This document shows positions 24,070 to 60,758 of a DNA stretch of 64,000 bases, one piece after another. The stretch comes from Candidatus Helarchaeota archaeon (GTDB taxonomy: Archaea > Asgardarchaeota > Lokiarchaeia > Helarchaeales > RDOG01), in assembly GCA_019058315.1 (NCBI GenBank), contig JAHPZH010000006.1, forward strand, positions 64,001-128,000, given 5' to 3'. A model generated the notes under the pieces. It did no database searches, was not told the origin of the DNA, and saw nothing but the letters and a program-made list of their open reading frames with translations. Made by a program: the position numbers and the translations under genes. How positions within the stretch are numbered: the stretch's first letter is position 1; every line of letters starts with the position of its first letter.

Positions 24070-25440
24070 ATGATGAATAAAATAGATTTAATAAATATGG
24101 GTCAAAAAGCAATAAAACAAATGCAAAAAAAAGGTATTGATCAGTCTGAATTGTGTGTAATTAAATCTAGAGAAATATCTATTGAAATTGAGAGGGGGTC
24201 AATAAAATATTCTAAAGAAATTACTGATTTTGGATGTTCTATTCGAGCAATAAAAAATGGGTGCTTGGGTTTTAGCTATACTACATCAATAACTCCGAAA
24301 TCAATTTCTCAACTAATAAATAGAGTAGAAAAATTAACAAATGTTGGACTTCATGACCCTGACTTTAAAAGTCTTCCAACTCCAAAAAAAATACCCAAAG
24401 TTTATGGAATATATGATTCTAATATTGCAAATTTGGATGTTTCTGAAGCTGTAGAATTAATTCTTAATCTTTTAGATAATGCCAATATTGATAAAAGAAT
24501 ACACTCAATAAATTCTTCTTTAAATTGTTCTTATGAACAGACTTTCATTATGAACTCTCTTGGGGTAGAAGCTATTGAAGAAAATAAAAATGGGCATACA
24601 TCGATTACAGTTTATGCGGAAATAACGGCAAAACAAGGTCAAGAAATGAGTTCTGGTTTTGAATTCCAAAATGGAAGATTCATTAAAGAAATAAACGTCG
24701 AAGAAATAGGAAAAAACGCCGCAAAACTAGCTATTGACAGCTTAGGAGCGAAAAACATCAAAACCTGTGAGCTTCCTATAGTTTTTCATCCGATTGCACT
24801 TTATAATATATTCTCAACGGCTATTGGAAATTCTATTAATGCAGAATCTATTCAATATGGAAGAAGTTATTTGTTAGATAAATTAAACAAAGAAATTGCT
24901 ATTAAAGAGTTTGAAGTCACTGATGATGGCATTTATATAAAAAATGGAATAGCGGGTTTAGGAACTTCAGCTTTTGATGGGGAAGGAACTCCTCAACAAA
25001 AAACTCAAATAATAAAAGAAGGAATTTTAAAAAATTATTTACATAATTCTTATACAGCAGGAAAAGCTGATACAGAAAGTTCAGGAAACGCATCAAGAGG
25101 AAATTTCAGAAGAATTCCAACAATTTCACCAACTAATTTGATAATAAAACCTGACAATGGTAAATTAGATAATCTAATTTCAGAAACTAAAGAGGGAATT
25201 TTAGTTATTTGGACAGGAGATAGACCAAATTTAGCAACAGGAGAATTTTCTGGTTTAATTGGTGCAGGGTTTAAAATTGAAAATGGTGAAATTACATTTC
25301 CTTTAAAACAAACAATGATTGGAATAAATATGTTAGATTTTTTTCAAAGAATAGATAGGATTGGGAACGATCTAAGACAAGTATCCCATATAATTACACC
25401 ATCAATTCGAATAAATAAAGGAAAAATAGGCGGAAAATGA
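24070..25440 (+). CDS. pmbA: TldE/PmbA family protein
   Basis: FDGEG, GNASR, TGEFS; adjacent to tldD. Confidence 0.9.
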   Translation: MMNKIDLINMGQKAIKQMQKKGIDQSELCVIKSREISIEIERGSIKYSKEITDFGCSIRAIKNGCLGFSYTTSITPKSISQLINRVEKLTNVGLHDPDFKSLPTPKKIPKVYGIYDSNIANLDVSEAVELILNLLDNANIDKRIHSINSSLNCSYEQTFIMNSLGVEAIEENKNGHTSITVYAEITAKQGQEMSSGFEFQNGRFIKEINVEEIGKNAAKLAIDSLGAKNIKTCELPIVFHPIALYNIFSTAIGNSINAESIQYGRSYLLDKLNKEIAIKEFEVTDDGIYIKNGIAGLGTSAFDGEGTPQQKTQIIKEGILKNYLHNSYTAGKADTESSGNASRGNFRRIPTISPTNLIIKPDNGKLDNLISETKEGILVIWTGDRPNLATGEFSGLIGAGFKIENGEITFPLKQTMIGINMLDFFQRIDRIGNDLRQVSHIITPSIRINKGKIGGK

Positions 25441-25483: not shown

Positions 25484-25568
25484 TACAGTAGGCTCAATAC
25501 TCAAGATCTTTCTCATTACTATTATTTTCAAATAGCTCGATGGGGTCATGAAATCATTACCTACTGCA
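25484..25568 (-). ncRNA. Box C/D-type guide sRNA; predicted target pre-tRNA-Leu
   Basis: 9-bp terminal stem and two K-turn geometries (AAU-GAUU/UUGA; UCGA..AAU-GAGA). Both guides are complementary to pre-tRNA-Leu(UAA) at 60602-60758. Confidence 0.75.
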
Positions 25569-25672
25569 AGTGATAGTAGTATTGAAAATATTTTTTTATT
25601 TTTTGTATTTTTAAAGAAGCATAGATTTGTTTGGTTTAAATTTAATTGTTTTAGTTAATTTTTGAAATTATA

Positions 25673-28600
25673 ATGAAACCATCCAAAACGAAAATAATAA
25701 GTTTTGAAAAGGATAGAAAGAATATATTAAAACTTATTGGGATTTTTATATTTTATACTAGTTTTGTAGGCATTTTAAACTATTTATTGCTTAATTTTCA
25801 AAATGTTAGTCCCCTCTCCTTATTAATTACATCTTATCAGCTCGAATTATTTAGTAAATTTATTCCAATTTTCGGAATTTTAATTATTACTTATATATTT
25901 TGGTATCTACGTAAAAAAGCAGATTTTAATAATAGTAAAAATGTAAAAAAAATAGATTTAATCATTATAACGCTAATTCTTTCTAATTTATTATTATTTT
26001 ATTTATTATATACAACTCCAATTTTTAAAATTGGACTAAATTATGGTTTATTAACTAATATTTTCTCAATATTTAATTCAATCAACTATTTATTTTTTAA
26101 TATTCAATTTTTAATATATTTAGTTAATGGATTTTTAATTAATTCCATTTCAATTTACTTAGTATTATCCACATTCATAAAAAAAACAAGAAAAAAAATT
26201 GTTTTGAGTTTTTTATTTTCATTAATAGTTTATGGAATTTTAATTATCTATTTACATATTTTTGAATTTTATTCAGAGCACATTCTAATATTGTCATTTT
26301 TTATTATTATTTGGCAAATTCCTTTAATGAAAATGTCTTATTTGTTTTTAAAATATAAAAATATTGATTTAAAAAATCATGGTATTCGTTCATTTGCACT
26401 AATCTTTAATAATAAAAATTATAGACGTGGTTTATCTATTTTAGAAGTCGCGCAAATTTCTAAAAATATGATTACAAGAGAAAATAGACAGATACCAAGA
26501 ACTTTAGATAAACTCATTGTTCCAGGACAAAAACAATATTTATTCTATCATCTTTTGCCACTTGCAGATGATATTCAGCAATTAAGTTATGAGATAGTTA
26601 TCTCAAAGTATTCCATTAAATTAAGATTTTATATTTCAATTTTTGGCAATTTGATCGAGGAAGAACTAATTAATAAGCTAAGAGATAATTCAGATCTTGT
26701 GGAAACTGCGTTTAAATCAAGTTTTAAAGATATTGAATTTAAGAATTTAGTAGGACAAGAATTATTAGATGCTTGGAGTGAGATTGTTGAATATGGGAAT
26801 TATTCATTTAAACGTGTAAGAGATGAAATTATTGAAATTAACAGGACAACTAATAACTTATATTTATCAATACTTAATTTAGATTCAATAGCACCTATCA
26901 ATGCAAATTCAGCTTTAACTCAAATTGATCAACTTATAAATAATATTTTGACTCATAATATTTCTGTCCATTACATAAGCGTCATTGAACCAAGTTCAAA
27001 ATTTGATTTTTTTAAACAGCTTGAAAAATTTCAGGATTCAAATTTAGCTAATAAAACTTTAGATAAATTCACACTAGAAGATAAGTTACACCATGAATTA
27101 TTAAATATAAGACACTCTGAATATATCCAAATGTGGAATTCATCGACATATATAGTAATAAAAGCGCTAGATCTTGAAATATTAAAAAGACATATACAAA
27201 AAATAAAAGCAATTTTTAAACAAGTATTTTCAAACTCAATGGTTACAGGCAATGTAAAAATTTTAGAAAAAAAAGAGCTAGAAAAAGCCCTACCTAAAAT
27301 TATAATGCGTGATAGAATAAATAATATAAAAATGAGTTCAGAACAAGTAATTTCTACATTTCATCTTCCAGAAAGCGTTGTTCCATCAATATCAATTAAG
27401 AAAGATATTCCATTATTCGAAATTCCACCAAAATTAGAGAAACTTGATAAAAGAAAAATAAAGATTGGAACGATTTATCATGGAGATAAATTACTATATA
27501 ATTCTTATATAGATTTAGAAGAATTAAGATTGAATATGTTTATAGTTGGACAAATTGGGATGGGAAAAACAGAATTTGCTAAAAATATCTTGAAAGAATT
27601 ATATAAAACTGTGCCAAATATAAACTGGTTAGTATTAGAATGGAAAGGGGATTATAAAGATTTGATTACGCGAATAAATGAGCCTATTCAAGTAATAAAT
27701 GTAGGTTCTGAAAAGAATCCTTTGAAATTAAATATTTTCGATCCAAATAGAGCAAATCCTGAAAATCATGCTATGAAAATATTTTCAATTATTAAAGAGA
27801 TTTTTAAAAGTAGCTATAAATCCCGTTCATATTTAGCTAATTATGAATTAAGCCCTCAAATGGAAAAAATTGCTCGTGATGTATTAATTGAATGTATGAG
27901 AAATCCAAATAAAAGGAACTTTAAGGCTTTTTTTAATGAATTAAAAGAATATGAAAAAAAATATTTTGGTAGTCAGAAAAGTTCTATAACAATGAGTGTA
28001 GCTGCAATAGAAAATCGTTTTCAACGGTTAACCACTGGTGTTTTAGGGAGAGTATTAAATACGGAGAATTCAAACGTTAATTTCCAAGATTTAATGAATA
28101 GGAAAATTATTTTTGATTTAAGTTCGGTTATATTTAATGAAGGAACTAAGGAAGATGTCAGACTTTTAATTAATTTAATTTTAAAATATGTAATTGATCA
28201 AGCTTTAAGAAGGGGACCGACACCTGAATTAAAACACATCGTTATATTAGAAGATTCACAGTTATTAGTTCCTGAGGTATTAAGGGAAGTGCCAGAGACG
28301 ACATTAGGGGAAGATATTCCACTTTTATTAAGAAGTGTGGGTGAAGCAATGATTTCTGTTGCTACACGACCCCAAATATCACCTGATATAATATCAAATT
28401 CCGCAATTAAAGTCACATTTAAATTAAATCAAGCTGATGATACTATTAAAGTTGCAAAATATCAAAATTTGAATGAAGAACAAGAACAATATCTAAGACT
28501 GACAAAAAAACAAGAAGCTATTGTAACTACACTTAATTTTCCTTATCCTTTCAGAATTAAAACAGTCACTTCTTATCCTAAAACTGTTACGGATGTCGAT

Positions 28601-29617
28601 ATCATAAAACATAATAAAAAATTCTATCCTGAAATGTATGAAAATAAAAGGAAAGACATTACAGATGATCAGATTAAACATCAGTTTAAAAGTCCTGAAG
28701 CAGTAGTTAAAAATTACGAAAAAACAAAAATTAGTAAAAATGATACCATATATGATGAAAAAGAAGTAAATAAATTATTAACCAGTTGGGAACTTAAGTG
28801 TTTTCAAAATTTAACTATTGATTATAAAAAAATGTTTTTAAAATTAAGAAAAACACTTTCAGAACCAAAATCTCTAAATGAAATTTCAAACCATTTAGGT
28901 CTTAAATCAGAAGAGCTAAATAAATATTTGAAAAAATTTGAATCTTTAAGATTAATAAGCTTTAATTTTTTTCCGAATTTTGATTCAGAAAAAACTGAAA
29001 AAAAATTTCATCTAACAAATAATGAAAATTATTTTAAGAAAATAATAGAGAAAAAATTAAAAGACGAATTCTATAAAGCTAGAGTAATTGGGGATTCGGA
29101 TATTGAGTCTTTTGATTTCTTCATTTTTAAAAATGAGTTTTTTATAAAAATCTTTACAAATAAAATAAACGAAACAAACAAATATTTTTTTAAGGAATTA
29201 TTTCTACAATGGGAGAGTGAAATTTTAAAAAGTAAAAGAGCTGGCTTAATCATAATTGTTCCATATCGATCTACAATAAATGCAATAAAATCAGTTATAA
29301 AAGATTACTTGAAAATTCCTGTAAAAATATTTAATTTTAGTAGCGATGATTGGGAAAAATTAAGAAAAATAATTAATACAAATAAGAATATAGAAGAAAT
29401 TCAAATAAAGGAAGGTATTTCAAAAGATATCGATGAAATATTAGAAGATCTTGATGGAACAGATACAAAGGAAATGGTTAATAAATTTTCAATTTTAGAA
29501 AGTAAACAAGAAAAGAATAATAATATTCAAAATGATTCTAATTCAGACAAAAAGGAACTCTTTTCTTTTATTGATAATATTCAAAAAAAAATTAAAACAA
29601 ATTTAGAAAAAAATTGA
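25673..29617 (+). CDS. Membrane-anchored HerA/VirB4-like (DUF87) ATPase
   Basis: Multiple N-terminal TM helices, Walker A GQIGMGKT, LEWKGDY, ILEDSQ; C-terminal HTH-like region. Confidence 0.8.
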   Translation: MKPSKTKIISFEKDRKNILKLIGIFIFYTSFVGILNYLLLNFQNVSPLSLLITSYQLELFSKFIPIFGILIITYIFWYLRKKADFNNSKNVKKIDLIIITLILSNLLLFYLLYTTPIFKIGLNYGLLTNIFSIFNSINYLFFNIQFLIYLVNGFLINSISIYLVLSTFIKKTRKKIVLSFLFSLIVYGILIIYLHIFEFYSEHILILSFFIIIWQIPLMKMSYLFLKYKNIDLKNHGIRSFALIFNNKNYRRGLSILEVAQISKNMITRENRQIPRTLDKLIVPGQKQYLFYHLLPLADDIQQLSYEIVISKYSIKLRFYISIFGNLIEEELINKLRDNSDLVETAFKSSFKDIEFKNLVGQELLDAWSEIVEYGNYSFKRVRDEIIEINRTTNNLYLSILNLDSIAPINANSALTQIDQLINNILTHNISVHYISVIEPSSKFDFFKQLEKFQDSNLANKTLDKFTLEDKLHHELLNIRHSEYIQMWNSSTYIVIKALDLEILKRHIQKIKAIFKQVFSNSMVTGNVKILEKKELEKALPKIIMRDRINNIKMSSEQVISTFHLPESVVPSISIKKDIPLFEIPPKLEKLDKRKIKIGTIYHGDKLLYNSYIDLEELRLNMFIVGQIGMGKTEFAKNILKELYKTVPNINWLVLEWKGDYKDLITRINEPIQVINVGSEKNPLKLNIFDPNRANPENHAMKIFSIIKEIFKSSYKSRSYLANYELSPQMEKIARDVLIECMRNPNKRNFKAFFNELKEYEKKYFGSQKSSITMSVAAIENRFQRLTTGVLGRVLNTENSNVNFQDLMNRKIIFDLSSVIFNEGTKEDVRLLINLILKYVIDQALRRGPTPELKHIVILEDSQLLVPEVLREVPETTLGEDIPLLLRSVGEAMISVATRPQISPDIISNSAIKVTFKLNQADDTIKVAKYQNLNEEQEQYLRLTKKQEAIVTTLNFPYPFRIKTVTSYPKTVTDVDIIKHNKKFYPEMYENKRKDITDDQIKHQFKSPEAVVKNYEKTKISKNDTIYDEKEVNKLLTSWELKCFQNLTIDYKKMFLKLRKTLSEPKSLNEISNHLGLKSEELNKYLKKFESLRLISFNFFPNFDSEKTEKKFHLTNNENYFKKIIEKKLKDEFYKARVIGDSDIESFDFFIFKNEFFIKIFTNKINETNKYFFKELFLQWESEILKSKRAGLIIIVPYRSTINAIKSVIKDYLKIPVKIFNFSSDDWEKLRKIINTNKNIEEIQIKEGISKDIDEILEDLDGTDTKEMVNKFSILESKQEKNNNIQNDSNSDKKELFSFIDNIQKKIKTNLEKN

Positions 29618-59579: not shown

Positions 59580-60302
59580 TTATTTCAAGCATAATACCGC
59601 AACAGGTGTGGATGCTTTTCTCCATTGTGCCATCTTTGAATCTGGGTCATAAGACATGGATATTTCTTTTCTTCCATGATTTCCTACTATCATTATAAGA
59701 GAATTTGGTGCTGCTTGTTTATACATACTCAACATCCACTTATCTGTCCTATGGATTAATCTTTTAATTAAGTTCTCAGGAGGACCACGTTTATAAATTG
59801 GATTTTGATATAAATTTTCGAAATCTAGGAAATGTATCCATTGAAAATCAAATCTATTCAAATATTTGGAAGCAGATACCCACGTATTTGTATCCATCTT
59901 AGTGGGAATAACTTTTGATGTTCCTGCATAAGTTATAAGATCTTCTTGTCTACCAATCATTAGAGTTGTTTTGGAATTTTGATTTAAATATGACATAAGA
60001 TTAAAATCTTTATTTTGAAGATCTCCATGAAAAATTTGGTGTAAAACCTCATTAGCAAGAGGTTGCTCAGTTTCTAATAATATTAAAGCTTTAGATTGAC
60101 TTATGACAAATTCGGGTTTGTGAACCACAATCTCAAATAATCCAAAGTTATCTAACATTATCAAAATAATACGTTCTATTGGGGGAGTCTTCATTTGAAT
60201 GGGTTCAGGTAAATTATTTGGAATTGTGATGCCAAATAAGTGTAAAATAGTTGAAGTTAGTGCTGGCATTGGTGCATTAATTGATGGTAAATCATCACTC
60301 AA
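59580..60302 (-). CDS. Degenerate alkaline-phosphatase-fold protein
   Basis: LIMLDNFG and IVGNHG resemble AlkP metal-binding segments. Confidence 0.5.
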   Translation of the reverse strand: MSDDLPSINAPMPALTSTILHLFGITIPNNLPEPIQMKTPPIERIILIMLDNFGLFEIVVHKPEFVISQSKALILLETEQPLANEVLHQIFHGDLQNKDFNLMSYLNQNSKTTLMIGRQEDLITYAGTSKVIPTKMDTNTWVSASKYLNRFDFQWIHFLDFENLYQNPIYKRGPPENLIKRLIHRTDKWMLSMYKQAAPNSLIMIVGNHGRKEISMSYDPDSKMAQWRKASTPVAVLCLK

Positions 60303-60465
60303 GATTAAATCAAACCCTTTTAATCTTTCTTTATTAACTATATTTTGAGATTATTTGTTCCTTATTTATTTTTTTAAAAATATATTTTTTGTGTAATAAG
60401 AAAAAAAAGATATTTTAAAGTATTAAGCAAAATAATACAGAATAATCATATTTTAATGAGTAAAA

Positions 60466-60601: not shown

Positions 60602-60758
60602 TGGTGCGGGGGATGGGAGTTTCACCAAAATATATAATATTTCGGATTCGAACCCATGAACTCCTACGAGACAGGATCTTAAGTCCTGCGCCGTTCGGCA
60701 CGTTTGTATGACCCCATACAAGTTGTCTCTTTTGTTTTACCAGCTTGGCTACCCCCGC
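60602..60758 (-). tRNA. tRNA-Leu(UAA) with introns at 21/22 (60694-60736) and 59/60 (60619-60646)
   Basis: Long variable arm; central helices TGGT/GCCG and TTCG/TGAA; encoded CCA. Confidence 0.88.

Follow-up and report, generated by a model that had tools for sequence, protein, structure and literature searches.

In archaeal box C/D sRNAs, box C (consensus RUGAUGA) is located towards the 5′ end and box D (consensus CUGA) towards the 3′ end, with a K-turn beside the terminal helix. Their guide spacers are approx. 12 nt long and the target nucleotide faces the fifth position upstream of box D, here called the N+5 register. Among the closest described systems is sR47 of Pyrococcus abyssi. This dual-box C/D sRNA is free-standing, its D spacer has 12 nt, and it guides Cm34 of tRNA-Leu(CAA) in vitro (PMC3413156). 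For P. furiosus, sRNAs were predicted to target C34 of tRNA-Leu(CAA) as well (PMC7668247). The only other leucine tRNA prediction found for Pyrococcus concerns the mature position G47 of tRNA-Leu(UAA). Archaeal C/D RNPs also act on the intron-containing pre-tRNA-Trp and pre-tRNA-Met; with the intron-borne guide of the former and sR-tMet of Haloferax volcanii, the modification of position 34 precedes splicing (PMC4033218). In yeast, extra pairing between snoRNA and pre-rRNA is established to aid methylation. This complementarity lies beside the guide and outside the methylation duplex, is not associated with a box and assists methylation at a neighbouring site (van Nues et al. 2011, PMC3116282).

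The sRNA described in this study is encoded in a window of 64,000 nucleotides, i.e. the whole stretch of DNA that was analysed, from an archaeal assembly of 5.8 Mb with 30% G+C (Candidatus Helarchaeota archaeon). It resembles sR47 in its dual-box C/D layout, its free-standing nature and the 12-nt length of its D spacer, and the spacer core GAUCUUGAGU is complementary to ACUCAAGAUC with C34 in the N+5 register; the core of sR47 was taken from the target oligo and splint sequences in PMC3413156. Unlike sR47, the Asgard sRNA has a D′ spacer that pairs with an intron of pre-tRNA-Leu(UAA), its boxes are degenerate and a hairpin is situated between D′ and C′. The guide core common to both sRNAs could be convergent, since the target is conserved. 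Like sR-tMet and the pre-tRNA-Trp guide (PMC4033218), the C/D RNP would act on position 34 of an intron-containing precursor, the methylation being a prediction in the present case. In pre-tRNA-Trp the intron itself is the guide, whereas the Asgard guide is trans-acting and has a separate arm for the intron motif. In the sR-tMet case of Joardar et al. 2011, a single contiguous guide duplex beside position 34 reportedly extends over both exon and intron. The Asgard intron motif, unlike this, is at least 23 nt away and even belongs to another tRNA arm. As in the extra base-pairing of eukaryotic snoRNAs, complementarity exists outside the methylation duplex and is predicted to help; it differs in filling the whole D′ guide position and in addressing a segment that is later discarded. 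In a literature search, no description of such an arrangement of D′ arm and intron was found for Asgard archaea. Giving a whole guide arm to a distant intron or leader segment differs from all described cases that were found.

Architecture and conservation of the sRNA locus

The sRNA was delimited by sequence, fold and conservation in relatives. It is 85 nt long and located on the minus strand (25484-25568), as are all of its elements. The sequence-only reading had described it as an intergenic minus-strand RNA, and this was borne out by its position in a 232-nt gap between two plus-strand ORFs (24070-25440 and 25673-29617). An A/T-rich, TATA-like stretch (25585-25597, minus strand) that was recognised by sequence reading lies 17-29 nt upstream of the RNA 5′ end and is a candidate archaeal promoter. 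RNAfold gave -22.9 kcal/mol for the sRNA, with z = -4.2. The terminal stem is formed by the 5′ strand UGCAGUAGGU (25559-25568) and the 3′ strand GCCUACUGUA (25484-25493). It had been proposed with a length of 9 bp; the stem as such stands, but it measures 10 bp, of which two are G.U pairs.

All boxes are off-consensus and retain the UGA/GA cores that would make the sheared pairs of a K-turn. Box C reads AUGAUUU (25551-25557) and has its UGA core 2 nt past the stem, as in the relatives. Box D reads UUGA (25494-25497) and occurs as CUGA, UUGA, AUGA or GUGA in relatives. The tandem G.A/A.G core of a putative C/D K-turn is present 2 nt from the 10-bp stem, with a U.U in place of the consensus G-C pair. 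Box D′ is UCGA (25537-25540) and conforms to the NNGA that is found throughout the relatives (CUGA, CGGA, CAGA, AUGA). Box C′ is AUGAGAA (25510-25516); the distance from its AUGA core to box D is constant in all family members. Both C′ and D′ keep their GA cores and align with the C′/D′ of all family members. They are separated by an internal hairpin that was predicted by folding, with a 5-bp stem and a 7-nt loop (25519-25535). The D spacer AGAUCUUGAGUA (25498-25509) has 12 nt, a length that is set by the search pattern in 136 genomes, and its N+5 nucleotide is G at 25502. The D′ spacer CAUGACCCCA (25541-25550) is 10 nt long, compared with 10-13 nt in relatives, and has a conserved core GACCC(C).

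When the whole RNA was subjected to a BLAST-type search against 60 relatives, mostly A/T-rich noise was obtained and the C′-guide-D part alone was recognisable; pattern searches were therefore used instead. The pattern comprised the C′ core, four bases, GAUCUUGAG, three bases and the D core. It detected the C′-guide-D unit with one copy per genome in 136 out of 400 genomes of the phylum, and the reversed pattern, used as a control in the same search, gave 1 match. In distant families, the members carry canonical boxes (GUGAUGA, CUGA) at equivalent positions. The terminal stems of the relatives diverge wholly in sequence and keep their complementarity, and the UGA of box C is found 2 nt past the stem in many of them. 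On the level of strains, short contigs from soil and mangrove metagenomes cover the sRNA, and their internal differences are confined to the loop of the internal hairpin (25525, 25526, 25529 and 25530, as well as insertions after 25524 and 25526). In two of these contigs, the similarity stops exactly at 25568, the predicted 5′ end. With regard to the protein partners, fibrillarin (310 bits) adjoins Nop5 (217 bits) in an operon of the same genome (G000:C3, ~1272-1275 kb). Given the conservation in the phylum, the compensating stems, the strain-level conservation and the presence of Nop5 and fibrillarin, the locus is, on comparative grounds, a genuine archaeal box C/D sRNA, and its expression is predicted.

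An Rfam search of the region matched no family, the best hit being a chance match with E = 1.4. The sRNA was not found in the three genomes of f3 (82-88% complete), even when 2 mismatches were allowed. An over-degenerate pattern search and exact 10-mer searches in genus g10 yielded coding-region matches alone and were discarded. A second AUCUUGAGU stretch in the window (~60292-60312, minus strand) is probably a chance occurrence and overlaps the TTG start of the ORF 59580-60302. It is flanked by UGA...AUGA and situated ~290 nt downstream of the tRNA-Leu(UAA) gene.

Complementarity of the D arm to leucine tRNAs

The tRNA-Leu(UAA) gene (60602-60758, minus strand) was identified by sequence and fold. 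It contains two non-canonical introns, one in the D loop and one in the T arm, and an encoded CCA; both ARAGORN and Rfam at gathering score miss it. The D-loop intron of ~42 nt (60696-60737, minus strand, boundaries ±2 nt) was delimited against the intron-less D arm of the genome G003 and other Leu genes. The tRNA-Leu(CAA) gene was located on another contig (G000:C5, ~310540-310678, minus strand) and has introns in the D loop and after nt 38-40. It is not called by ARAGORN either; introns abound in most tRNA genes of this genome, and several of these genes are overlooked or called incorrectly.

The D guide GAUCUUGAGU (25499-25508) pairs with ACUUAAGAUC, which corresponds to nt 31-40 of tRNA-Leu(UAA) (60675-60684, minus strand). 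Within this duplex, the wobble nucleotide U34 (60681) is paired as G.U with G at 25502, which occupies the fifth position upstream of box D. The proposed 10-nt match to the anticodon arm, with the D+5 rule leading to position 34, is thus exact in the sequence. It had further been expected that the G-U pair would be G-C for a Leu(CAA) isoacceptor, and the tRNA-Leu(CAA) found elsewhere in the genome agrees with this: its nt 31-40, ACUCAAGAUC, form 10 Watson-Crick pairs with the D spacer, with C34 in the N+5 register. The duplex was calculated with -15.7 kcal/mol for tRNA-Leu(CAA) and with -13.0 kcal/mol for tRNA-Leu(UAA), which has 9 pairs and the G.U at position 34. In the tRNA-Leu(UAA) gene, the D duplex is wholly exonic, and the intron motif described below forms a separate duplex with the D′ arm.

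The assignment as a C/D sRNA aimed at position 34 is supported by the phylum-wide C′-guide-D unit and by the core that matches sR47. The D arm is accordingly best described as a known function in a new lineage, and the predicted guidance of Nm34 on NAA leucine tRNAs is in itself ordinary. A double target (CAA and UAA) is plausible, since bacterial TrmL and yeast Trm7-Trm734 place the wobble 2′-O-methyl group on both NAA leucine tRNAs (PMC4615657, PMC6847430). A second guide with an A opposite position 34, which would fit UAA perfectly, is not present in this genome. The G.U at the target nucleotide could reduce or prevent the methylation of U34; a literature search gave no statement on the effect of such a pair at a C/D target nucleotide.

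Some tRNA-Leu(CAA) introns (in G075 and G014) carry a copy of the guide core, e.g. GUUCUUGAGCC in G014. This copy pairs with the anticodon loop of its own precursor, so that sRNA and intron would compete.

Complementarity of the D′ arm to the tRNA-Leu(UAA) precursor

The D′ pairing stretch AUGACCCCAU (25540-25549), whose N+5 nucleotide is C at 25545, forms 10 Watson-Crick pairs (-16.8 kcal/mol) with the motif AUGGGGUCAU in the D-loop intron (60708-60717, minus strand), with G at 60712 in the N+5 register. The perfect complementarity between D′ region and intron that had been read from the sequence is exact, and the match is among the longest perfect ones of the lineages compared. The motif makes up the loop of a 7-bp hairpin within the intron together with its uppermost three pairs and is thus partly buried in the stem. 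By itself, the 10-mer match is unremarkable and weak evidence, because the D′ 10-mer occurs 14 times on both strands of the 5.8-Mb genome and dozens of equally long or longer matches with G.U (10-14 bp) exist genome-wide. The chance of such a 10-mer falling in the same ~157-nt precursor as the D target is ~1e-3 or less, and in shuffles of the precursor the match was equalled in at most 1 out of 300. Acceptor stems are G-rich, and matches between the D′ spacer and the 5′ ends of further tRNAs (Val, Trp and others) were therefore put down to chance.

The D′ spacer is conserved across the phylum with the core CU[AG][GA]CCC and a conserved partner was therefore expected. Genes for pre-tRNA-Leu(UAA) were taken from sRNA-bearing genomes and located by the anticodon arm, and the sRNAs by the D arm. 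As the homologues were collected by the D arm and the anticodon arm only, the test of the D′ arm is not circular. In 35 genomes from 20 lineages, the D′ spacer and a precursor motif GGG(G)YYR, usually displayed in a hairpin loop, change together. The longest match of the D′ spacer in the pre-tRNA-Leu(UAA) of the same genome was 8-12 bp in 15 of the 20 lineages, so that the guide/intron covariation which the sequence-only reading had named as a check turned out positive in these. With one genome per lineage, the mean pairing score was 8.9 within the own genome vs. 6.72 across lineages. The value of the own pairs was reached in none of 5000 permutations (p < 0.0002, a value that overstates independence as the lineages are related).

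Compensatory sets of guide and motif are CUAGCCCC/GGGGCUAG, CCAGCCCC/GGGGCUGG and AUGACCCC/GGGGUCAU, and further ones are CUAACCC/GGGUUAG and CGGCCC/GGGCCG. In individual genomes, guide and motif read GUCUAGCCCCAA and UGGGGCUAGAU (G065), GAUCCAGCCCCA and GGGGCUGGAUU (G066), UCUAACCCUUGA and UAAGGGUUAGA (G086), UGUUCGGCCCU and GGGCCGGACA (G296), AAAUCUGACCCCA and UGGGGUCAGA (G177), UUCCAGCCCUG and AGGGCUGGA (G397), and UUUCUGACCCAU and GUGGGUCGGAAG (G038), the latter with 12 pairs of which three are G.U. In every lineage, a C occupies the N+5 position of the D′ spacer and faces a G of the GGG(G) run. This own-genome covariation across lineages shows that D′ spacer and precursor motif most probably pair in vivo and that their pairing is under selection.

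The element that hosts the motif varies. It is the D-loop intron in most lineages; in f13 and f31 it is an intron directly 3′ of the anticodon, and in f19 a 5′ leader hairpin. In the f19 genome G165 (contig C1), the motif AAGGGUCAG is part of a hairpin ~80-50 nt upstream of tRNA-Leu(UAA). In front of this hairpin, the acceptor start GCGGGGG occurs a second time, and the host may be a leader or an acceptor-stem intron. Five lineages pair over 6-7 bp only, including the large family f4, f14, f17 and G001. In f4, the motif is reduced to UGGGUCA, followed by a bulged A. G001 is the sole relative from the same family and pairs over 7 bp (AGGGGUC), with its intron at the equivalent place. The D-loop region of its tRNA-Leu(UAA), ~100 nt in length, contains besides the motif AGGGGUC an upstream sense-strand look-alike of the D′ spacer, GCGACCCGU. 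Both can pair with each other, and the look-alike may be an internal competitor of the guide.

The Asgard pre-tRNA-Leu(UAA) precursors examined have 2-4 introns each. It had been asked whether tRNA-Leu(CAA) has the same intron sequence. This is not the case, as the D′-pairing motif is absent from the precursors and introns of Leu(CAA) in this genome and in relatives. The D′ spacer pairs with the intron or leader motif only; a guide-substrate pairing that requires the intron is present.

The genes of the sRNA and of tRNA-Leu(UAA) often share a contig at a distance of 10-60 kb. They are 35 kb apart here, 18 kb in G001, 10 kb in G065, 40 kb in G067, 41 kb in G059 and G052, 38 kb in G042, 42 kb in G320 and 21 kb in G296. 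This linkage is loose but recurrent.

Proposed mechanism and alternative explanations

We consider it probable, with room for doubt, that the locus encodes a dual-guide sRNA of the sR47 type whose D arm acts on U34/C34 and whose D′-intron pairing serves as a landing pad that aids wobble methylation. The sRNA would assemble with L7Ae, Nop5 and fibrillarin, and its D spacer would pair with nt 31-40 of both NAA leucine tRNAs, placing nucleotide 34 in the methylation register. The expected outcome is Cm34 on tRNA-Leu(CAA) and, most likely, Um34 on tRNA-Leu(UAA) despite the G.U. The D′ spacer would address no mature RNA and pair instead with the G-rich motif atop the intron hairpin of pre-tRNA-Leu(UAA). 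This landing pad would tie the RNP to the unspliced Leu(UAA) precursor, i.e. to the isoacceptor with the weaker anticodon-loop duplex, and wobble methylation would precede the removal of the intron. As a side effect, the motif nucleotide in the N+5 register, G 60712, may become methylated as well. In this proposal, we infer from sequence that the sRNA is expressed and protein-bound, that the G.U does not keep U34 from being methylated and that the intron pairing assists this reaction. The landing-pad role is favoured because the motif is limited to the isoacceptor that is weakened by the G.U, because it survives relocation between introns and leader and because it is displayed on hairpin tops.

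Alternatively, the D′ pairing might serve the 2′-O-methylation of the intron G itself (60712 in this genome), with any help for the wobble position being incidental. Such a Gm could render the excised intron more stable, label it or control the cleavage by the splicing endonuclease. The pairing of the N+5 C with a motif G in every lineage agrees with this, as the register is always methylation-competent, and no part of the motif is more conserved than the G run. However, with a spacer of 12 nt, any duplex of at least 8 bp covers position 5 and the register does not discriminate. Besides, the target G shifts within the run, with 1-4 nt between CCC and D′, and the motif is restricted to the isoacceptor that is also addressed by the D arm. 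We know of no role for the methylation of a discarded intron, and this was counted against the explanation as well. On balance, intron methylation as the purpose of the pairing appears unlikely.

It is also conceivable that the sRNA methylates C34 of tRNA-Leu(CAA) only, that U34 stays unmethylated and that the D′ arm is a chaperone for the multi-intron pre-tRNA-Leu(UAA), which would open or hold the intron hairpin for correct folding and splicing. The G.U at the UAA target position and the presence of the motif in intron hairpins fit this idea, and precursors with 2-4 introns would need help in folding. Yet the complementarity of the D arm extends over the same 10 nt in the UAA anticodon arm, and the genome has no other UAA-specific guide. 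Moreover, both NAA tRNAs as a rule carry a 2′-O-methylated wobble nucleotide in bacteria (TrmL) and yeast (Trm7) (PMC4615657, PMC6847430). A chaperone that leaves U34 unmethylated is therefore regarded as decidedly improbable. The roles as landing pad, in intron methylation and as chaperone are not mutually exclusive, and sequence alone cannot separate them.

Finally, the intron match might be coincidental and the D′ spacer might have another target in rRNA or in another tRNA. This would be in line with the many spacer matches of 10-14 bp genome-wide, and the 16S rRNA in the assembly covers only the 5′ 828 positions at a contig end (G000:C12:50-897), its 3′ half being missing. Longer targets in rRNA for both guides had been named as a result that would speak against the intron function; they were looked for and none was convincing. 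Neither spacer had a convincing site in the LSU and 5′ SSU of this genome, with no run of at least 10 bp with few G.U, and in four relatives, among them the one from the same family, the full-length SSU genes gave no consistent D′ site. The LSU site CAAGGGUUAG matches the D′ spacer of the relative G075 over 10 bp but was rejected, as the homologous site misfits the spacers of this genome and of G001. That spacer and precursor motif covary in 15 of 20 lineages also argues against another target, which we regard as very unlikely.

Further candidate targets were dismissed in the course of these searches. Those in mature tRNA-Leu (D loop, variable arm and anticodon arms of other isoacceptors) needed bulges or mismatches. 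The canonical variable arm CCGUAGGGGU fits the D′ spacer of G001 and is absent from both Leu(UAA) and Leu(CAA) of G001. The LSU A-loop region was dropped after sequence reading. In the LSU rRNA of G000:C5, this A-loop (~position 2760) reads GGGGCUGUACGCCC, with an A in place of the U that is presumably to be expected from bacterial and archaeal sequence.

That the stretch is not a functional RNA and merely an intergenic hairpin resembling a C/D RNA by chance, as its degenerate boxes and the Rfam search without a match might suggest, is hardly credible in view of the unit's conservation throughout the phylum (136/400 genomes), the compensating terminal stems and a strain-level conservation that is limited to the RNA.

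Implications for tRNA introns in Asgard archaea

The purpose of archaeal tRNA introns is an old open question, especially for the non-canonical ones of Asgard and crenarchaeal lineages. To our knowledge, the few exceptions are the tRNA-Trp intron that acts as a guide and the guides that span exon and intron. The landing-pad proposal suggests that this tRNA-Leu(UAA) intron may have a job, which would be a concrete and testable intron function, with a pairing that is held by compensatory change across the phylum even while the intron moved within the gene. In a more general and tentative form, non-canonical introns of Asgard archaea may be kept, at least in tRNA-Leu(UAA), as landing pads for modification, with an order of modification before splicing and a motif that was passed between intron positions while its pairing was retained. 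The motif would in this case recruit the C/D RNP to the precursor and be required for wobble 2′-O-methylation to be efficient; we regard this as possible and rather doubtful.

In bacteria and eukaryotes, Nm34 on NAA leucine tRNAs is made by protein enzymes. If the landing-pad proposal is true, modification would be linked to the order of splicing in these archaea. The pairing would then also represent an archaeal equivalent of the extra base-pairing by which snoRNA-guided methylation is enhanced in eukaryotes. Such a parallel would be of interest, given that no known relatives of eukaryotes are closer than the Asgard archaea.
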